Source: a virus. Taken from it: 64,000 nucleotides of DNA. The first letter of the stretch is position 1, and each line of letters opens with the position of its first letter. Under the pieces are notes generated by a model that was not told the origin of the DNA, did not search any database, and was given only the letters and a program-made list of their open reading frames with translations. Below are positions 3,810 to 60,459 of this stretch, in pieces. The stretch spans positions 39 to 64,038 of the IMG/VR virus record IMGVR_UViG_3300048855_000163; one strand, 5' to 3'. Made by a program: the position numbers and the translations under genes.

Positions 3810-4105
3810 GGTTCAAACTCGCCATAGCTGCCTACGTGCCAGGAGTGCACATCATCAACGTGCTCGACGTAACCTGCAGCGACTAGCCATGGCAGGAAGT
3901 CGTCAGGCCTGCATTCGTACCAGTCACCCGCAAACTTAGGTTCCCAAGACTTCCTGTGCTCTTCGCGGAACTGGTCGGCTACTTGGCTCTTGCTAAGTGG
4001 CTTCAAAACACGGACGGGGCCGTTCCAAGTTTTATCACTGTATTCACCCGTTTCGATGATGAGCAATGTTCCCGCACAAAGGGCTTGGTCTAAATCGTCG
4101 CTCAT
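3806..4105 (-). CDS. Hypothetical phage protein
   Basis: ATGA overlap; protein-like composition. Confidence 0.65.
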   Translation of the reverse strand: MSDDLDQALCAGTLLIIETGEYSDKTWNGPVRVLKPLSKSQVADQFREEHRKSWEPKFAGDWYECRPDDFLPWLVAAGYVEHVDDVHSWHVGSYGEFEP

Positions 4106-29915: not shown

Positions 29916-32111
29916 ATGGCATCAAACCCCTTCTCACTCGGCAACATACCGTTGTCGAGCCCATCACCTGTGTCTGATGAAGGCACGACGATCGTGGTGG
30001 ACGCTGAGGGGGATGCCACGCCTGGGCTCGATCCGGAGACGGGCACCGTCACCATCGAGCACGACGACGGCTCGATCACGATCGGCCCCGACGAGGACGA
30101 CAGTGTCGAGCGGCAGGAAGAGACGGACGAGAACTTCTATCGCAACCTCGCGTTGGAATTGGATGGATCCACACTCGGGCTGATCGCAGATGATCTGCTG
30201 GAGGGCATCGACTCCGATATCGCCTCCCGCAAAGATTGGCTGGAGCAGCGGGCCGAGATTATCGCCATGCTCGGCCTCAAGCTGGAGGAGCCGCGCGGCG
30301 ATCTATCGGCCTCAGCCGCGCCGCTCGAGGGCATGTCGGTCGTCAACCATCCGCTGCTGCTCGAGGCTGTGCTCCGGTTCCAAGCCAACGCCCGGGGCGA
30401 GCTTCTGCCGGCGGAAGGCCCGGTCAAGGTCAGCGTCGACAGTGAAGCCGACAGCACCGGCACGCAATCGACACTACCGGGCGATACGCAACCGGCGCTC
30501 GATTCCGACAATCTCGCCGAGACGCTTGAGGAGCAGTTCAACTACTACCTGACGGTCACCGCCAGCGAGTACTATCCCGACACCGACCGCATGCTGTTCC
30601 TGCTCGGGGCAGGCGGCACGATGTTCAAGAAGGTGTACCGCTGCCCGATCAGGCGTCGTCCGGTCTCGGAAAGCGTCGATGCCGAGCACATCATCGTCTC
30701 AAATAACGCCACGGACCTGAAGAACGCCCTGCGCGTCACCCACCACATCCGCAACATGAGCAAGACCACGCTCAAGCGGATGCAGCTGCTGGGCGTCTAT
30801 CGGGATATTATGCTCGGCGACCAGACGGGGCCGGAGATCACGGCCGTCGATCAGGTCAAGGCCGAGCAGCAGGGCACTGACCCGAACGCTACCCGGCCGG
30901 AGGACCAGAACCCCGACCTTTACGAGTGCTATTGCAGCCTGGACATTCCGGGCTTCGAAGACACCGACGATAAGGGCAACGCAACGGGGCTCTTGCTCCC
31001 GTATCGCGTGACGATCCATCGTGAGTCCAAGCAGATCCTGGCGATCGTCCGCAACTGGGAGCAGGGCGACGACGACAAGATCGCCCGCGAGGTGTTCGTC
31101 AAATACCCGTTCGTGCCGGGCCTCGGCTTCTGGGATATCGGTCTCGGGCATATCCTGGGCAACACGACGCGGGCGCTTTCGGCGATGTGGCGCATCGCCA
31201 TCGACAACGGCATGTTCGCGAATTTTCCCGGCGGCCTGATAGCCAAGAGTGCCGTCCGGCAGAATTCGAACGAAATGCGGATTCCGCCGGGCGGTTTCCA
31301 GCCCATCGAGACATCGGACAAAGATATCCGCTCGCTCGTGACCGAGCTGCCCTATCGCGACGTGAGCCCGGCATTTCTCAGCCTGATACAGGGCGTCACG
31401 GAAACCGGCCAGCGTGTCGGCGGTACGGCGGAGCTACAGGTCGGCGAGGGCAGGCAGGACGCGCCCGTGGGCACGACGCTCGCCCTGATCGAGCAGGCCA
31501 CCAAGGTCATGGATGCGGTCCATAAGCGCATCCACGCCGCACAGGCCAAAGAATTCCAGCTGCTCAAGGAGCTGTTTCGGCAGAACCCGCAGGACATCAT
31601 CCGCGGGCGCAAAGGCGCCTTGGAAGCCTGGAACGAGGACGAATTCAAGGCGGCGCTTGAGCGCGCCGATATCACGCCGCGCGCCGATCCGAACACGCCG
31701 AGCCACATGCACCGGCTGATGAAGGCGATGAACCTGCTGCAGATGGCACAGATGGCGCCGCAGCTGTTCAACACCTACGAGGTCGCGACGTACGTTCTGC
31801 GGATCTTGGGCATCGAGAATATCGACAAGATCCTCGTGCCGCCGCAACCGGTTGCGCCCGCGCCGCCGCCACTCGCCGATGTTGCCAAGATGATCGCCGC
31901 GCAGGCCCAGCTCGGCCGCAATCAGGTCGCGTCAGAAAAGAACCAGCTTCAGGCGGCCCAGTTGGCTGCCGATAACCAGCACCGCGACGCAGACCGCGAT
32001 GCCGACTTGCAGAAGGCCTCTCTCAACGTGGCGAAGGAACTCATCGTCCATCCCGAGAGTGCGCCGATTGTCGAAAACACGCTCGGTCCACTGAAACCGC
32101 CGACGCAGTAG
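29916..32111 (+). CDS. Portal protein
   Basis: 731 aa after terL; FY.NLA..L...D..SR.DW, HP.L.EAV.RFQA.A..EL.P..GPVK, YPDTDRMLF, GTT.AL.EQA.KVM.A.HKR.H. Confidence 0.88.
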   Translation: MASNPFSLGNIPLSSPSPVSDEGTTIVVDAEGDATPGLDPETGTVTIEHDDGSITIGPDEDDSVERQEETDENFYRNLALELDGSTLGLIADDLLEGIDSDIASRKDWLEQRAEIIAMLGLKLEEPRGDLSASAAPLEGMSVVNHPLLLEAVLRFQANARGELLPAEGPVKVSVDSEADSTGTQSTLPGDTQPALDSDNLAETLEEQFNYYLTVTASEYYPDTDRMLFLLGAGGTMFKKVYRCPIRRRPVSESVDAEHIIVSNNATDLKNALRVTHHIRNMSKTTLKRMQLLGVYRDIMLGDQTGPEITAVDQVKAEQQGTDPNATRPEDQNPDLYECYCSLDIPGFEDTDDKGNATGLLLPYRVTIHRESKQILAIVRNWEQGDDDKIAREVFVKYPFVPGLGFWDIGLGHILGNTTRALSAMWRIAIDNGMFANFPGGLIAKSAVRQNSNEMRIPPGGFQPIETSDKDIRSLVTELPYRDVSPAFLSLIQGVTETGQRVGGTAELQVGEGRQDAPVGTTLALIEQATKVMDAVHKRIHAAQAKEFQLLKELFRQNPQDIIRGRKGALEAWNEDEFKAALERADITPRADPNTPSHMHRLMKAMNLLQMAQMAPQLFNTYEVATYVLRILGIENIDKILVPPQPVAPAPPPLADVAKMIAAQAQLGRNQVASEKNQLQAAQLAADNQHRDADRDADLQKASLNVAKELIVHPESAPIVENTLGPLKPPTQ

Positions 32112-49940: not shown

Positions 49941-52900
49941 ATGGGCAGCAAGGACTCTACGGTTACGCAGCAGACGCAACCGAACCCGATTGCGATGGCC
50001 AACTATCAGGCCGTCATGGGACGGGCGAACAATGTTGCGAGCACACCGTATCAGCCTTACACGGGGCAGCTCGTCGCGGGTCTTTCGCCGACGCAGCAAT
50101 CCGGCATTCAGAACCTGAACAACGCCCAGGGAGCCGCCAATCCCTATTTGCAGACCGCGCAGGGGTTGATCGGGCAGGGGACACAGCAGATCACGCCGCA
50201 AGGGTTCTCGTCGGGAGCCCTGCAGCAGTACATGAATCCGTACCAGCAGCAGGTCATCGACTCGACGATGGCCAATATCGGCGAGACGAATGCGCAGCAG
50301 GCCCAGCAGTTGAAGGGCAATGCGGTCGCCTCGGGGGCCTTCGGTGGGGATCGTGCGGGCGTCGCTCAGGCAGAATTGGCACGCCAGCAGGGGCTTGCCA
50401 GCAATCAGACGCTCGCCGGCCTCAACTCGCAGAACTACAGCCAAGCGCTTGGCGAATTCAATACGCAGCAACAGATGGGCTTGTCCGCCTCACAGGCGAA
50501 TGCCCAGAACGCGTTGCAGGGGGCTTCGCTCTCCGGTGGCCTTGGACAGCTCGCGAGCAGCACGGCCATTCAAGGCGCGATGGCTCAGCTCTATGGTGGC
50601 GGTCTCGACCAGCAGACGCAGCAGAACATCCTCAACAGCGCCTATCAGCAGTGGCAGAACCAGCAGTCTTATCCGTTCCAGACGACCGGCTGGCTCGCCA
50701 ATATCGCTGAAGGCACCGGCTCTCAGATGGGCGGCTCTTCATCATCGACGCAGCCGGGCCCGAGCGCTGCCTCGCAGATCGGCGGCGCTGCACTTGGCAC
50801 GGTTGGCATGCTCGGCGCGACCGGCGCATTTGGCTCGGCCGGTTGGCTCACCGGATTGCTTGGTCTTTCCGATATCCACGCGAAGGAAGATGTTCAGGAG
50901 GTCGGCAAGACCTTCGACGGGCAGCCGATTGTCAAATTTCGTTACAAAGGCGACCCGACCCCTCGCATGGGCCTTATCGCTCAAGAGGTGGAGAAGACCC
51001 ACCCGGAAGCTGTCCATCCCATTCCCGGACTCGGTGGCCTGAAAGGTGTCGACTACGATCTCGCAACGGCGGACTCTGCTCGAAAGGGTAAGTTCGCCGT
51101 TGGTGGCGTGCCGGCGCCCTATGGTCAGGATGCCCCTGGCATCGTGCCCGACCCCGCCATGCAGGTGACGCGTGGTCTTGGGCCGCCGCCTCCACCGAAG
51201 CCGGAGACGCCCGAAGACCCGATGCAGCAGGTCTTCAACGCGATCCCCACGCTAAAGGGCATCCGCAACGACATGGGCGCCGGAAACGCCGCGCCGCAGA
51301 AGGTCGTTTCGCCCATTCAAAATATGGATCTGAACCAGGCCGCGCGCGGTGGTGCGATCCACATGGCGATGGGCGGTGTCCCTTACACCGATGCGCCGCC
51401 GGTCGCGGGCCTCGGCGCGCTCACGCCCGCAATGCCGGGCAACGATAATTCGGATCAGGGCGGCGGCTCTTCCGGTCTCGGGGGGGCCTTCTTCCGCCCG
51501 ATCGGTCAGTTCGCAGCTAACGGCATGCCTGATCCCAACGGCTACCGGCAGTGGAAGGACGCTACCGGCGGAACGATGTCGTTCGATAATTGGCAGAGGG
51601 GGCAGGGCGTTCTTTCAGGCCTCGGCGCAACACCGACGGTCGCCGATGTGGTCCAGCGGGCGCCGTGGATGGGCGGTGATCAAGCCATGCAGCTGCTCCA
51701 GACCGGACATATCGCGCCGGCTGCGAACAGCAACAGCGATATGGTCTCGCGTGTCGCGAATGCCGTTCCTGCGCTTAAGCAGATCCGCGATCGGGCGCGC
51801 GGCGGCGCGGTGCAGGGCTTCGCCGATGGCGGCTCGCCGGATGATGGATTTGTCATTCCCCCGGCTGCCGTTGCTGGGCTCGGCTCGCTCGTCGGCGCGC
51901 CAATGCCCGACATGACGCCAGCCCCGGTCGCCGGACTTGGCGCGCTCGACCTCAGCTCGCCGGCCGTCCGCGGGCGGGTTGCTCCGCTTGCCGGCGATAC
52001 AATCGCGCCCCCGGCGAATGCCCAACGCATCGACAGCTCGCGCGATATGGTCGCCCCGCCGCGAGACCCGGCCTATCGGGTCAATCCGGCTGATACGGTC
52101 GCGCCGGACGGGTCGAACCCCGTCAGCCTCGTCGATGTCGCCCGGCAGAAGGAACAGCAATACAACCTGCCCCCCGGCACGCTCATGGGAACGGTCAATC
52201 TCGAATCCCATTGGAACCCGAACGCGAGAAATCCGAACTCGAGCGCGGCGGGTCTCCTTCAGTTCACGGATTCGACCGCCCGGCAATATGGGCTGACAAA
52301 CCCCTTCGACCCCTACGCCAGCCTCGACGCCGGGGCGCGCTTGGCAGCGGACAATCGCACGACGCTCGAAAAGGCGCTTGGGCGAGAGCCGACCGCGGCG
52401 GAATTGTACCTCGCTCACCAGCAAGGCGCCGGCGGCGCGATCAAGCTCCTGTCCAATCCAAATGCGCTCGCCTCCGATCTCGTCGGCCCCGATGCCGTAC
52501 GTCTCAATGGCGGCGATCCCGGCAGCACGACGGCGGGGCAGTTCGCGAACCTTTGGACGGGCAAGTTCAGCACTGATCCCGACCAATATAGCGCAGGTGC
52601 TCAGGATGGGCAGACTGCCGGGCTCGCTGATCTCCCGGTTGCAGGTGGTCACGAAACGCAGCTTCAGGGGCAAGCCGGCCTCGGGGCGCCCCAGAGCGAC
52701 GATGCCAAACAGAATGCATGGCTGGCCCTCGCGGCGGCCGGCTTCGGCATGATGGGCGGCAAGTCCAAATTTGCCGGTCAGAATATCGGCGAAGGTGCTC
52801 TTGCGGGCCTGCAGACCTATCTAGGGCTGCAGCAGAAAAACCGTCAGTACAACGTTCAGCAACAGGAACTTGGGCTCCGGGGACGCAGCGTCGATCTCGA

Positions 52901-53999
52901 TGCGCAGCGCTTGCAGCAGCAGGCTCAACAGTTCGCGCAGCAGCAGGGGCTTCGCCAACAGGAGGTCAATCTGCAGGGCAAGAACATCGAGAGCGAGGCT
53001 AACCTTCGCAATGTTCAGGCCGGCGCGCAGCGCTATCAGCAGACGATCACCCCGGCCGGCATCATGATCCGCGACACGCAGAACCCGGATCAGCCGCCGC
53101 GTCTTGTGCCGTTCTCTCAGCTTCAGACCGGCAGCACGGGAGCAGCGGCGCCGAGCGCGCCGACCGGAGCGGCTACACCCACGGGGCAGAGCGCTGGCGC
53201 AACGGGAGCGCCCGGTCAACCGGTTGCGGCCCCTTCAACGGCTGGCGCTGCTCCTCAGCCGGAGCCGATTGTGCCCGCCGCTCTCACCAGCGTGACGGAG
53301 CCGCCGCAGAACATCCCGATCAACTCCATGCTGTTTTCGCCGCAAGGTCAGCAGGTCGCCGTTGATCTCACCAAAAAGACCATGGAGAAGGCGAAAGATG
53401 ATTATGACAGCGCCCAGGGCGTGAAACTGCAGCTCGACCAAATGCAGCATGCTTTGCAGGCGCTGCCGGCAAGCGGGCTGTTGTCACAAGGGCCGGGCGT
53501 GAATGCGAGGACGGCATTCGCCAAGAGCGCCAATCAGGTCCTGCAGACCATAGGACTGCAGCCCTATTTCGATCCCAATGCGATTGGTTCGGTCGAAGAG
53601 CTGAACAAGCTGACGACGCGCCTTGGTTTCGATCTGGCGCGGTCTCTCGGCAGCCGCGAGGCCGGCTTCATCGTCAATCAGGCGGTCGCGGCGGTGCCCG
53701 GCGCCGAGAACACCAAGGCCGGTGCGCAGCGGATCATGGCAAGCCTGGATGCGGTCGCCCAGCGGCAGGCTGATTATTATGGCTTCATCCAAAAATGGGC
53801 GCAGCGCACCGGGGGTGATGTGACGGGAGCGGACCAGTATTTCAATCAGGTTAACCCACCGCAGAAATACGTGGATCGGGCTCTGATTTCCGTCGCGCCA
53901 CAGACAGATATCGCTGCCGTTCAGAAAGACCCCCGTCTTGCTACTCGCTTTGACCAGAAGTACGGCCAAGGTCTCTCGCGCTACGTTCTGGGACAGTAA
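49941..53999 (+). CDS. DNA ejection protein with internal S74 chaperone and transglycosylase domains
   Basis: Gln-rich N-terminus; SDIHAKED...MGLIAQEVEK..PEAV...VDY; NLES.WNPNA.N..SSA.GL.QF. Confidence 0.82.
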   Translation: MGSKDSTVTQQTQPNPIAMANYQAVMGRANNVASTPYQPYTGQLVAGLSPTQQSGIQNLNNAQGAANPYLQTAQGLIGQGTQQITPQGFSSGALQQYMNPYQQQVIDSTMANIGETNAQQAQQLKGNAVASGAFGGDRAGVAQAELARQQGLASNQTLAGLNSQNYSQALGEFNTQQQMGLSASQANAQNALQGASLSGGLGQLASSTAIQGAMAQLYGGGLDQQTQQNILNSAYQQWQNQQSYPFQTTGWLANIAEGTGSQMGGSSSSTQPGPSAASQIGGAALGTVGMLGATGAFGSAGWLTGLLGLSDIHAKEDVQEVGKTFDGQPIVKFRYKGDPTPRMGLIAQEVEKTHPEAVHPIPGLGGLKGVDYDLATADSARKGKFAVGGVPAPYGQDAPGIVPDPAMQVTRGLGPPPPPKPETPEDPMQQVFNAIPTLKGIRNDMGAGNAAPQKVVSPIQNMDLNQAARGGAIHMAMGGVPYTDAPPVAGLGALTPAMPGNDNSDQGGGSSGLGGAFFRPIGQFAANGMPDPNGYRQWKDATGGTMSFDNWQRGQGVLSGLGATPTVADVVQRAPWMGGDQAMQLLQTGHIAPAANSNSDMVSRVANAVPALKQIRDRARGGAVQGFADGGSPDDGFVIPPAAVAGLGSLVGAPMPDMTPAPVAGLGALDLSSPAVRGRVAPLAGDTIAPPANAQRIDSSRDMVAPPRDPAYRVNPADTVAPDGSNPVSLVDVARQKEQQYNLPPGTLMGTVNLESHWNPNARNPNSSAAGLLQFTDSTARQYGLTNPFDPYASLDAGARLAADNRTTLEKALGREPTAAELYLAHQQGAGGAIKLLSNPNALASDLVGPDAVRLNGGDPGSTTAGQFANLWTGKFSTDPDQYSAGAQDGQTAGLADLPVAGGHETQLQGQAGLGAPQSDDAKQNAWLALAAAGFGMMGGKSKFAGQNIGEGALAGLQTYLGLQQKNRQYNVQQQELGLRGRSVDLDAQRLQQQAQQFAQQQGLRQQEVNLQGKNIESEANLRNVQAGAQRYQQTITPAGIMIRDTQNPDQPPRLVPFSQLQTGSTGAAAPSAPTGAATPTGQSAGATGAPGQPVAAPSTAGAAPQPEPIVPAALTSVTEPPQNIPINSMLFSPQGQQVAVDLTKKTMEKAKDDYDSAQGVKLQLDQMQHALQALPASGLLSQGPGVNARTAFAKSANQVLQTIGLQPYFDPNAIGSVEELNKLTTRLGFDLARSLGSREAGFIVNQAVAAVPGAENTKAGAQRIMASLDAVAQRQADYYGFIQKWAQRTGGDVTGADQYFNQVNPPQKYVDRALISVAPQTDIAAVQKDPRLATRFDQKYGQGLSRYVLGQ

Positions 54000-56900
54000 T
54001 GATGGCGGATCAACTTCTCCTGCCGAGCGACATCGCCGAACAGCAGCCCGCGACGGACGCGTCGCCGCCCGCTCAAGAGGGGGCACCGTCGCTGATGCTG
54101 CCCAGCGATATCGAGGAGCAGAAAACCTCTCCTTCTGTTGGTCAGCTTGGTTCCCAACTTCCGACAGGCTTCAACACGCGACTGGCTCATATTGCCGGCG
54201 CTCCGGTCGATGTCGTCACGGGAGAGGTCAACAAGGGAATCACGCCGTCCAGCTCGCCCGTCGGGTCGTTCGTCCCCTCTCTGCCCGAATTGGTGGGGCG
54301 TGGCTTACGGGCAGTCGGGCTGGCCGATAAACCTATCGAACAGCCTTTCGCAGGGTCGCAGTCGATCGAGAAGGGCATGGGCGCGCTCGGTATTCATACC
54401 GATGAGCAGCAGCCGGCGACCGCTCCCGAACGGATCGCCAGGGCTGCCGGGTCTGGCGCGGCCGATATGGTCCTCAATCCGGCGCGTGGCCTCTATGATG
54501 TCGCCGCCGGCATGTTCTCGGGCGCAACGGGCGCTGCCACCGGTCAGGGCCTGTCTGAGGCCGTCCCCGATAAGTACAAGCCGATTGCCCAGGTCGCCGG
54601 CAATATCCTTGGAGGCGGGGCGGGTGCGGTTGCATCTGAGGCGCCGCGGGTCGTGGCGAGTGCTGCGCGCCAGGCCGGCGAATATGTTGCCCCCCTGACA
54701 GCAGCGGGACGCGAACGGCTGGCCAGCCAAACGCTCGCGGACTCAGCGACGAGTCGGGCCGCTACCCTCGACGCGTTGGAGAACGAGCCGCGCGAACTGG
54801 TTCCGGGCTCGTCTCCGACGACCTTTCAAGTGACCGGCGATATGGGGCTCGGCGCATTGGAGCGCCGGGTCGCGACGCAGAACCCAGAGGAGTTCAATAC
54901 TCTCCGGGGCGATCAGAACGCCGCTCGCGTTTCGGCTTTGGACAATGTCCAGCCGACGGGCGCCCCGGAGGATGTGTCCAATTTCTTCCGGTCACAGCTT
55001 CAGCAGATCGATACGGATGCACAGCTTAGTGTGGACGACGCGCTCCAGAAGGCGCGCACGTCCGCAGATCAAATTGGCGGCCTCCGCAATCCCGAAGCTT
55101 ACGGCCAGGACATCCGCGACCAAATTCTCCCCAAAATGGATCAAATCAGCCAGGGCGCGAGACAGCAGGTCGCGTCTCTCGGCGGAACGGGGAACTTGGA
55201 GGAATACGGCAGCACGCTTCGGAATGCGCTGCAAAGTGCGAAAGACGCAGCGAAGACTCGCGAAAGATCGCTGTGGCAGGCCGTCGATCCAGATGGCACC
55301 CTTGCGCTCGATGTGTCCCCGCTAAAATCGGCCGCCGCGCAGATCGAATCGCGCATGACGCCCTCGGCCAAGCCGATCAGCGGCGAAGAAAGCGACATAT
55401 TCAACGCAATTCGTACGTATGATCCTGTTACACCATTCAATGAGCTGACGGATCTGCGCAGCCGCATTACCGCAGAAATGCGCGGGCAGTTGCGAACGGC
55501 GGGGGAAACGCCGACTTATGCAAGGCTCGCTCAGTTGCGGGGTGCCGTCGAGAGCAGTATCAATAATGCAATCGAGCGAAAGGCGGCGCAGGAGCAAGCA
55601 GCGGTTGCGATCGGGGCGATGAACCCCGAAGACACGATGGCTGCAAAGCTGCAGCGTGATATTGAGGAATACCGTGCCCGACAAGCTGCCGCCCGGCAAA
55701 ACGCTGGAGCAAGCGTTGGAGCAGTTGGATCCGCAGGAGCGACCGGGATTTCTTCGATTCCTGGAGGAAAAGGCCAGGGCTTCGGGGGATCTGGCATACC
55801 TCCGGGAACTCAAGGCGTATCGCGAAATGTCCCGCTCACTCCCAACCTTGACGAAGATGCCGCCCAAAGACTGAAGGCGGCCACACAGGCGACGAAGGAA
55901 CGCGCCCAGACCTTCGGGCAAGGCCCCGTTGGTCAGACCCTCAAGTCGCAAGGCGCGCAGGGCAATTATCGCCTTCAGGACGCCGCCGTTCCGGCGAAGC
56001 TCTTCCATCCCGGCCCGACCGGCTATCAGGATGTGCAGGCGTTCAGAGCCGCGGTAGGTGACGATGCCGCTGCCTTGGACGCGCTCCAGAACTATGCGTC
56101 CGCTTCGCTTCGCAAGGCCGCGTTGCGTGCCGATGGGACGCTCGATCCAAGCAGGTTCGCGACATGGCGGCGCGCTCATTCTGATGCGTTGCGTGCCGTC
56201 CCTGAACTCGCGGCCCGCTTCAGCAATACTGCAAAGGCGACTGACGCGCTGGAGCAGTTCGCGCCGTTCCGCGCAGACATAGCCCCGTCGCATCTTCCGG
56301 AGGTCTTCTTCCACCCGGGCCAGAGCGGTTTCGAGGGTGTCCAGCACCTACGGCGCCTGACCGGGGATGAGCATGCACTGCCTTTGCTGCAAGATTATGC
56401 CGCAAGTCGGCTACGCCACGTTGCGATGAATCCTGACGGTACGATCAACCCGGCGAAATTGCAGACGTGGCTTCGAGCGCATGACCAGGCTATGCGGGCA
56501 TTCCCGGAACTGCGGGCGAAGTTCCAAGACGCGGCCACGGCTTCACAAGCCGTCTCTGATGCCGCCGCCGCGCGCAAAGCTGCCGTCGACGCCTACCAAA
56601 AGGGGTCCGCCGGCAAGCTTCTGAACGTAGAGGACCCCGAGGACGTGACGCGCGTCGTCGGGGGCATTTTCGGCCAGAAGAATGCCGTCCAGCAGATGCG
56701 CAAATTGGCCGTTGAGGCTGAGAAGAGCCCTGCTGCGAAAGAGGGGCTGCGCAAGGCCGTCGTGGACTTCATCGGCGGGAAATTCATCAGCAACACGGAA
56801 GCTGGCACGTCAGGCCAGAACCTGATGAAGGCAGACGCGTTCCAGACCTTCATCAAACAGAACGAGGGCGCTCTCAAGCAGATCTTCACCGACGAAGAGG

Positions 56901-59428: not shown

Positions 59429-59542
59429 ATGAAAGAGAAGCTTAAGCAGGCCTTCACCGCGCTCGCCGCTCAGGTCCAGGCGCATCCCTACATCGCCACG
59501 GGCGTGATCATCGCGCTTGTGGTTCTCGCCGTGGTGCTGTGA
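59429..59542 (+). CDS. 37-aa single-TM protein, holin-like position (not in the track)
   Basis: GGAG RBS; HPYIATGVIIALVVLAVVL; TGATG overlap with the lysin. Confidence 0.55.
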   Translation: MKEKLKQAFTALAAQVQAHPYIATGVIIALVVLAVVL

Positions 59543-60459
59543 TGGCGGCAGAGAACTACGACGCGGCCCTCAAGCAAGAGCTGGTGCTCGAGGGAGGCAA
59601 TGTCGACGATCCCCGCGATGCTGGTGGTCGCACCAGCCGGGGCGTCACGCAGCGGGTTTATGACGCTGATCGCCGCCGTCGCGGTCTGCCGACACAGGAT
59701 GTCTGGAAAGCCACGGATGACGAGATCGCGGCCATCTACAAGACCCAGTACTGGGACGTGATCCTCGGTGACCAGCTACCCGCGGGTCTCGATCTGCTGA
59801 TCTTTGATGGATCGATCAATTCCGGGCCGGTGCAGTCCGTCAAATGGGCTCAGCGCTCGCTCGGCAACGTGAGGGTGGACGGCCATCTCGGCAAAGAAAC
59901 CCTCGATGCGATCATTGCCTATCCCGACCACGATCTGCTGATCGCCAGCATTTGCGACCGGCGGATGGCCTTCCTGAAGGCGCTCAAGACGTGGCGCACA
60001 TACAAGAACGGCTGGACGAGCCGTGTTGACCACATCAAACAGGCCAGCCAGGCGATGGCCACCGGCAGCGTTGGCCCCGATCCGTCCTACTTCACGAACG
60101 GCGAGAAGAAGGCCTTCATCAGCGATGCCCGAAAGCCGCCCTCGCTTGCTCCGGCGAGCGCGGTCGGGACGGGCGGCGTGGTGACGATGACCATTCAACA
60201 GGTCACCGGCTCACTTCAGCCCCTTCAAGGCTGGATCCCCATCATCGACCATACGGTTGGCGCGATCACGGCGGCCGGCGGCATTCTCACCGCAGGTGGC
60301 CTCGCTTATGCAGCTTGGGCCAAGCACAGGGCGAACACCATCAACGACGCCCTCAATCTCGGCGAGACGCCCGCGCCTCCCACGGCCGTTGCGCCCGTGG
60401 CTCCTCTGCCGCCTGCGCCGCCCGCCACACCCGTAGCGCCTGCGGGAGGTGCAGCATGA
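59542..60459 (+). CDS. Endolysin, glycoside hydrolase 108 family
   Basis: EGG.VDDPRDAGG.T..GVT, IYK..YWD, LP.GLD...FD..INSG, GW..RV. Confidence 0.92.
   Translation: MAAENYDAALKQELVLEGGNVDDPRDAGGRTSRGVTQRVYDADRRRRGLPTQDVWKATDDEIAAIYKTQYWDVILGDQLPAGLDLLIFDGSINSGPVQSVKWAQRSLGNVRVDGHLGKETLDAIIAYPDHDLLIASICDRRMAFLKALKTWRTYKNGWTSRVDHIKQASQAMATGSVGPDPSYFTNGEKKAFISDARKPPSLAPASAVGTGGVVTMTIQQVTGSLQPLQGWIPIIDHTVGAITAAGGILTAGGLAYAAWAKHRANTINDALNLGETPAPPTAVAPVAPLPPAPPATPVAPAGGAA

Follow-up and report, generated by a model that had tools for sequence, protein, structure and literature searches.

Does the low-complexity linker of a large phage protein take its composition from a second, hidden gene that is read in another frame of the same bases? 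This question is raised by a locus in the IMG/VR virus record IMGVR_UViG_3300048855_000163, a 64.9-kb provirus, of which we analysed a stretch of 64,000 nucleotides that covers most of its length (positions 39 to 64,038 of the record; hereafter, the window). The gene concerned, P0001 (53999-57346, plus strand), encodes a virion-module protein of 1115 residues with two helical halves and a disordered linker, as described from its open reading frame (ORF) and translation, >200 homologues and an AlphaFold2 model. An original prediction, made from the sequence of the window without database searches, had proposed that a small overprinted gene is hidden in this linker. Our comparison with homologous loci indicates that the segment 55674-55874 is very probably a real, unannotated, dual-coding nested gene.

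Nested ORF in the linker of P0001

The nested ORF (55674-55874, plus strand) consists of 66 codons followed by a TGA stop codon (55872-55874) and lies in frame +1 relative to P0001. Its assignment as a gene is based on a hidden Markov model (HMM) and on a phase switch of constraint, both of which are described below. It begins with a GTG codon (55674-55676, plus strand), and 5 nt before this codon lies a Shine-Dalgarno-like GAGGA sequence (55664-55668, plus strand), identified by sequence and by a calculated anti-Shine-Dalgarno duplex of -6.2 kcal/mol. The stop-to-stop frame extends upstream of this GTG, and the earliest possible start codon in it is the GTG at 55656. The GAGGA sequence, the 5-nt spacing, the GTG codon and the peptide that had been quoted in the original prediction are all present at 55664-55874, in a plus-strand frame other than that of P0001.

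Over the same bases, the main frame reads as a Gly/Ala/Ser linker, as had also been stated (P0001 residues 568-615; 55700-55843, plus strand). In the AlphaFold2 model of P0001, which was built with 29 homologues, the two helical halves are predicted confidently, with predicted local distance difference test (pLDDT) values of 80-94 and 90-96, and the linker is disordered, having pLDDT values of 29-45 and no secondary structure. Residues 568-606, which lie between the two halves, have values of 29-31 and likewise lack secondary structure.

The region around the nested ORF has a GC content of 63% and contains 55 ORFs of at least 50 amino acids within 8 kb. Because 21% of equal-length +1-frame windows in the homologous genes are open, the nested ORF is not beyond chance in this genome alone, and its significance therefore rests on the comparison with homologues only.

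Selection on both reading frames

P0001 has >200 homologues, the best of which show 47-49% identity. For the comparison, 113 loci were retrieved; they come from viral contigs and from the genomes of ~20 alphaproteobacterial genera, including Xanthobacter, Azorhizobium, Ancylobacter, Kaistia, Rhizobium, Shinella, Aureimonas, Fulvimarina, Devosia, Microvirga and Acidisoma. Cultured carriers of the locus include Azorhizobium oxalatiphilum CCM 7897 and Rhizobium lusitanum. Contiguous alignment across the linker was obtained for 76 loci, and the +1 frame is open in nearly all of them.

In the ungapped 31-codon core of the alignment, host codon positions 1, 2 and 3 have entropies of 1.47, 1.05 and 0.99 and GC contents of 0.72, 0.74 and 0.38, respectively. 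The least variable, GC-poor position corresponds to the second codon position of the nested frame, and the most variable one to its third position. When the host frame was divided into ten-residue blocks, the flanks showed the usual pattern, with entropies of 1.55-1.7 at third positions and ~1.0 at first positions and a third-position GC content (GC3) of 0.65-0.79, whereas the pattern is inverted in the blocks covering residues 580-609 (first-position entropy, 1.4-1.6; third-position entropy, 0.87-1.1; GC3, 0.31-0.41). The same shift is visible within the window itself, where the GC3 of the main frame of P0001 falls from ~0.70 to 0.33-0.43 at codons 551-600. The original prediction had suggested synonymous-site constraint across homologues as a check, and such constraint is present in the low third-position entropy of the host frame. 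Furthermore, the amino acid sequences of the core are 44% identical when read in the nested frame, compared with 27% for the host frame. These comparative data indicate that purifying selection acts on the nested frame.

The host frame is also preserved. In 89 of the 90 distinct loci, it has no stop codon over the length of the nested ORF, whereas only 7-15% stay open after synonymous resampling of the nested codons. A stop codon in the host frame can arise only through a T at the third position of a nested codon that is followed by AA, AG or GA, and a T occupies such a position at 1 of 1574 sites, compared with 14.9% elsewhere. The third sense frame is open in 9% of the loci, and the antisense frames are open in 28-38%. 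Both frames are kept open, and the stretch is therefore dual coding. Staying open appears to be the only visible requirement on the linker in the host frame. The host third position, being least variable and GC-poor, bears the signature of a nested second position, which agrees with the earlier proposal that the nested gene shapes the linker; the odd composition of the linker is therefore largely what the small gene leaves over.

An antisense ORF of 341 amino acids (55322-56347, minus strand) covers the whole region, as is typical of GC-rich DNA. It was rejected as a gene, the antisense frames being open in only 25-34 of the 90 relatives.

Distribution and age of the nested gene

An HMM of the +1-frame peptides matches 93 of 114 homologous loci from ~20 alphaproteobacterial genera, including 19 loci outside the set from which it was built. 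There is one match per locus, and all 93 are on the strand of the large gene and lie inside it in frame +1. Every one of these matches has an open nested frame, compared with 21% of control windows. Locus L017 carries a diverged nested copy, which brings the total to 94 loci. The conserved +1 translation follows the motif P-G..L...L..[LM]P..[DE]R..FL...E..A...GD[LF]..LR.I..YR.

The nested gene is about as diverged as the sequences on either side of it (40% versus 44% identity), and the identity of nested peptides tracks that of the flanks (Mantel r = 0.33; 0 of 999 permutations). It occurs at one and the same junction in ~90% of a family whose members share 31-49% identity. This near-universal presence, together with the co-divergence, fits long vertical co-inheritance better than it fits the behaviour of a homing element. 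More distant relatives of P0001 lack the nested gene.

In each of two Xanthobacter genomes, the large gene is present as a pair of paralogues, of which one has the linker together with the nested gene and the other lacks both. The paralogues are L043 and L084, located ~11 kb apart on NZ_VTTL01000006.1, and L042 and L086 in Xanthobacter autotrophicus AM5. A P0001-type protein can thus exist without the linker segment, at least with a second copy near. In five host genomes, the nested copies are the only copies of the domain, and in a sample of 401 genomes of the class the domain was detected only in the already known centre genome and in one borderline match.

Translation start

Among 90 distinct loci, the aligned start codon is ATG in 57 and GTG or TTG in 30. 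ATG codons peak 32-33 codons before an invariant Glu codon, and 52 of the 90 loci have an ATG 30-38 codons before it, compared with ~16 expected, which is our estimate based on a rate of 0.022 per codon for +1-frame ATGs in the rest of these genes. The GTG codon of the window aligns with this start cluster, 30 codons before the invariant Glu. The aligned ATG derives from differing host dipeptides, either N-D before a conserved Trp or N-E after it, and is therefore not a by-product of one host motif. The nearest upstream stop codon in the +1 frame is never <31 codons from the invariant Glu; the median distance is 55 codons, and it is at most 40 codons in 21 loci. In L003, L009 and L105, the stop immediately precedes the ATG.

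Complementarity to the anti-Shine-Dalgarno sequence is also stronger than at control +1-frame starts in the same genes (family mean, -4.76 versus -2.80 kcal/mol; Mann-Whitney p = 2e-15). The -6.2 kcal/mol calculated for the GTG of the window may be compared with an average of -4.2 kcal/mol for the ordinary gene starts in the window. Taken together, these features of the aligned sequences favour the view that the nested gene has its own initiation signals, and thus internal initiation over programmed frameshifting. Neither an internal promoter nor a terminator was found in the region; a search of the region against Rfam gave no match, and its RNA fold z-score (-1.46) is not unusual.

The nested protein

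The nested protein would be 66 residues long, with a mass of 7.6 kDa and an isoelectric point of 8.0. AlphaFold2, run with an alignment of 58 sequences, predicts three helices with pLDDT values of 81-90 in the core and a floppy tail. Helix 1 comprises residues 9-16 (55698-55721, plus strand). Helix 2 (residues 23-37; 55740-55784, plus strand) holds the invariant Glu31 (55764-55766), and helix 3 (residues 40-54; 55791-55835, plus strand) holds the near-invariant pair Leu43-Arg44. The Ser/Thr/Pro-rich tail (55836-55871, plus strand), which has low pLDDT values, overlaps a conserved motif of the host frame, L-x-P-N-[FL]-D..A..R-L.

The protein contains no Cys residue, no hydrophobic signal and no membrane segment, and its model has no Cys/His motif. 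The 58 members gave no match to Pfam or PHROGs, and no Pfam nuclease appeared at E<=1. A PDB sequence profile and a Foldseek search against PDB yielded nothing usable, as did searches of the ESM Atlas by features and by shape, and the best Z value in a wide VIA-align search (5.2) is noise for helices. When the nested protein was modelled in complex with the two folded halves of P0001, the score was 0.00, which is evidence neither for nor against an interaction.

Relatives of the nested domain in other contexts

A profile search of 1.84 billion representatives yielded 293 proteins at E<=1e-3, of which 117 also reach E<=1e-10; most have 55-75 residues. Ten database members were checked by name. 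Most of them lie on short contigs, and the only organism-level annotation among the ten is the Devosia 'hypothetical protein' UXN74512.1, which is annotated because the host gene is split there. In the complete genome of Devosia sp. A8/3-2 (locus L092; CP104974.1, ~3964-4026), the large gene breaks into two overlapping frames a short distance 5' of the nested gene. One further protein, P0172, was considered as a free-standing gene and rejected; it represents the nested arrangement, and its call as a gene is due solely to a frameshift in the host gene on a short contig.

P0237 (182 amino acids) is free-standing, without an overlapping ORF, and carries the domain at its N-terminus, starting with M-P-D at the position equivalent to the nested start. 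Its neighbourhood is chromosomal and includes ABC-binding, DUF192 and non-ribosomal peptide synthetase (NRPS) genes. P0169 shares the partner domain of P0237 (40% identity, E = 8e-15) in the reverse domain order. In P0173 (377 amino acids), a singleton, the domain is C-terminal, and the gene lies between MaoC and HSP20 genes. No relatives of P0173 or of the N-terminal domain of P0169 were detected in a set of 5.8 billion proteins; Pfam gave nothing usable for the free-standing relatives, nor did the ESM Atlas for P0237. In P0139 (229 amino acids, three samples), the frame equivalent to the host frame survives as a relic, E-P-N-F-D-Q-A-A-A, broken by stop codons, and the small frame is intact. 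Here, the small frame has outlived the large one.

In three metagenomic proteins, P0162, P0195 and P0211, N-terminal sequence of the host frame runs in frame into the nested peptide, and the join differs from one protein to the next. They may have arisen through sequencing indels or deletions, or they may represent natural trans-frame variants. In addition, P0151, a low-GC repeat protein of 1411 amino acids, contains eight matches to helices 1-2 of the nested profile through a repeated L-P-x-x-D-R-L-P-F-L sequence. This resemblance probably reflects a convergent helical repeat rather than homology.

Host gene and its genomic context

The late region of the provirus contains, in order, the portal gene (29916-32111), tail-fibre-like and virion structural genes, the gene for an ejection-type protein with an SLT domain, P0001 and the endolysin gene (59539-60459, downstream of P0001). 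The original prediction had described the host of the nested gene as the large ejection protein. This assignment has to be revised: the SLT-bearing ejection protein is encoded by the upstream gene (49941-53999, plus strand), and P0001 is the next gene. The upstream product is a 1352-residue DNA-ejection-type protein with an SLT transglycosylase domain, which matches Pfam SLT and Peptidase_S74 and PHROG 4287 ('DNA ejection protein'). P0001 itself matched no family in Pfam or PHROGs, and neither tblastn with P0001 nor blastn with the region gave a match in the phage GenBank collection. The stop codon of the SLT gene and the start codon of P0001 overlap by one base (53996-53999), which suggests that the two large virion genes may be translationally coupled.

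Some relatives of P0001 carry additional domains. P0005, a homologue, has an InPase domain at its N-terminus. At the same junction as the linker, P0087 contains an in-frame ddrB-ParB domain (residues 575-701), and P0101 an in-frame GNAT domain (residues 576-627). The junction between the folded halves of this family thus appears to be a hot spot for the acquisition of in-frame modules. In the relatives with a ddrB-ParB or GNAT insert, the nested gene lies just 5' of the module, and its Ser/Thr/Pro tail has been lost. The C-terminal half of P0001 also includes two tandem modules of ~80 residues (56003-56530; residues ~669-844), which begin with F-[FH]-P-G and contain D-G-T-[LI]-[DN]-P and look like an internal duplication.

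Alternative explanations and proposed model

The least probable explanation, to which we give almost no weight, is that no second protein exists and that conservation of the +1 frame reflects either constraint on the nucleotide sequence, such as RNA structure or a packaging signal, or the chance absence of stop codons in a GC-rich gene. In a single genome, a +1 window of this length is open with a probability of ~21%, and GC-rich genes carry many spurious ORFs, as the 55 ORFs of at least 50 amino acids in 8 kb illustrate. However, the variation has a period of three, with conservative amino acid replacement in one frame only; start codons and Shine-Dalgarno-like sites are enriched; neither Rfam nor the RNA fold z-score points to an RNA element; and homologous free-standing genes as well as a confident AlphaFold2 fold are available. 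The comparative data thus already largely disfavour this explanation. It is scarcely more credible, and in our view very improbable, that ribosomes enter the nested frame from the host frame by programmed +1 (or -2) frameshifting of the lambda G/GT type, so that a truncated N-terminal half would carry the three helices as a C-terminal extension. An internal Shine-Dalgarno-like element can stimulate +1 shifting, as in prfB. In many loci, the +1 frame has no stop codon for a good distance before the start, as the median distance from stop to Glu shows, and P0162, P0195 and P0211 join host N-terminal sequence to the nested peptide. Yet these three are metagenomic calls whose join points differ and which could have arisen by sequencing indels or deletions. 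Moreover, 21 of the 90 loci have a stop codon in the +1 frame no more than ~8 codons before the start cluster, and this stop abuts the ATG in L003, L009 and L105; the start codons cluster at one aligned position; and the free-standing P0237 begins with M-P-D at the equivalent position. No conserved slippery motif was seen on reading the aligned upstream sequences, although no formal motif search was made.

A third alternative accepts the nested gene as real and concerns its function only. The gene could be an autonomous passenger, i.e. a moron or selfish cassette that resides in an insertion-tolerant linker and is unrelated to P0001. Relatives carry in-frame modules at the same junction, the domain also occurs in non-phage genes, and the ShiLan insertion, with its out-of-frame HNH gene in mycobacteriophage methylase genes, shows that read-through insertions exist (PMC11855218). 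On the other hand, presence in ~90% of a family at 31-49% identity, at one junction and with co-divergence, is unlike a sporadic homing element or moron, and there is no sign of a nuclease or mobility domain, in that no Pfam match was obtained and the model consists of three short helices. We therefore regard a passenger as unlikely, though far less so than the two preceding explanations.

Several observations weigh against our interpretation as a whole or in its functional part. The loci share a phylogeny, so that the counts given above do not represent independent events. Shine-Dalgarno motifs are weak in many homologues, and three loci lack a start codon near the aligned position. Among the listed sequencing runs that hold the stretch, there is no RNA run and only one soil-metagenome DNA run, which may be the source of the record, and translation of the nested protein is a computational prediction. 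With regard to function, the paralogous host genes L042 and L043 have neither linker nor nested ORF, as would also be expected of a passenger; the free-standing relatives are fused to unrelated domains; and no fold or family match points to an activity.

In spite of these points, a real nested gene with internal initiation, a three-helix product and, as its most likely role, a function in the virion or ejection module is, taken as a whole, the explanation that we consider quite probable. The nested gene would be translated from the same late mRNA as P0001, with ribosomes initiating internally at its own Shine-Dalgarno site and GTG codon. The product would be a free protein of ~66 residues and 7.6 kDa that folds into three helices, and the same bases would yield the disordered Gly/Ala/Ser linker in the host frame. 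We favour a protein that works together with the virion or ejection module, perhaps by helping P0001 to be assembled or packaged, because the gene has kept the same place and has co-diverged with the host gene across ~20 genera; we propose such a role only tentatively, at somewhat less than even confidence.

The original prediction had termed the small gene overprinted. That the nested gene is under selection has been borne out, but its implied status as the newcomer has not, because the evidence leans towards the nested frame being the older one. The nested frame is structured and has normal codon-position GC, the host frame is disordered, paralogues lack the segment, and free-standing homologues exist, and for these reasons the nested frame may be the older reading and the linker derived. 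One possible scenario, which we would not yet call the probable one, is that a pre-existing small gene was swallowed at the module junction and that the host gene then evolved read-through in another frame, the linker being the younger reading.

Comparison with known systems and significance

The Rz1 gene of phage lambda is read in the +1 frame relative to Rz. Two-component spanin genes occur in embedded, overlapped and separated architectures, the lambda pair being an example in which Rz1 lies inside Rz (Kongari et al. 2018, PMC6139136). The nested gene resembles Rz1 in being a complete small gene with its own start that lies wholly inside a larger late gene of the phage on the same strand and in another frame; in the Rz1/Rz pair, both products are made, and the embedded part of the host gene tolerates a second frame (PMC6139136). 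However, the nested protein has no lipoprotein signal, lipobox Cys or membrane segment and is thus unlike an o-spanin of the Rz1 type. P0001, in turn, is a virion-module protein without the features of a membrane protein and is not an i-spanin, and the lysis genes lie downstream of it.

The closest case in logic is the ShiLan insertion, in which an HNH endonuclease with a GTG start is encoded out of frame inside a mycobacteriophage DNA methylase gene (Arsenault, Gosselin and Gogarten 2025, PMC11855218). There, too, the host frame reads through the stretch as a loop, and the other frame encodes a structured protein and is the 'real' gene. The ShiLan insertion, however, is a homing nuclease that occurs sporadically among close relatives, whereas the nested gene described here lacks a nuclease motif and is broadly distributed and old.

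InPase and ddrB-ParB are modules of the polyvalent proteins that phages package into virions (Iyer, Burroughs, Anand, de Souza and Aravind 2017, PMC5512222). Relatives of P0001 carry both, and its linker is a junction at which modules are added. In polyvalent proteins, though, the modules are in frame and travel with the polypeptide, whereas the nested module is read in another frame from a start of its own and would be a free protein. The terms 'overlapping' and 'frameshift' are absent from Iyer et al. (PMC5512222). The open literature that was searched yielded no account of this family, nor of nested genes in the linkers of polyvalent proteins.

As a rule, the frame that arose de novo in an overprinted pair is the smaller, nested ORF. 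The present pair is like the overprinted pairs of viruses in that one stretch encodes two proteins, one of which is ordered and conserved and the other disordered and of biased composition (Sabath, Wagner and Karlin 2012, PMC3494269; reviewed in PMC8227390). It differs in that the disordered, probably younger frame is that of the large host gene. The usual picture of overprinting is thus inverted, since the makeshift frame here appears to be that of the large gene and the structured frame that of the small one. The case is also unusually clean because selection could be shown for each frame separately, and it explains the composition of what would otherwise pass for a 'low-complexity linker'.

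Gene callers forbid a gene that lies wholly inside another on the same strand, which is the reason why the nested-protein family, comprising 293 representative clusters, is essentially unannotated. For studies of how large internal virion proteins are assembled or delivered, the nested protein is a concrete new component to be tested. Should other giant virion proteins show the same pattern, scans of their linkers for phase switches would reveal many more hidden genes, and the linkers of giant injected or virion proteins would be a general landing pad for complete out-of-frame genes. Our reading, if true, would mean that phage genomes contain a hidden coding layer that annotation pipelines exclude by design.

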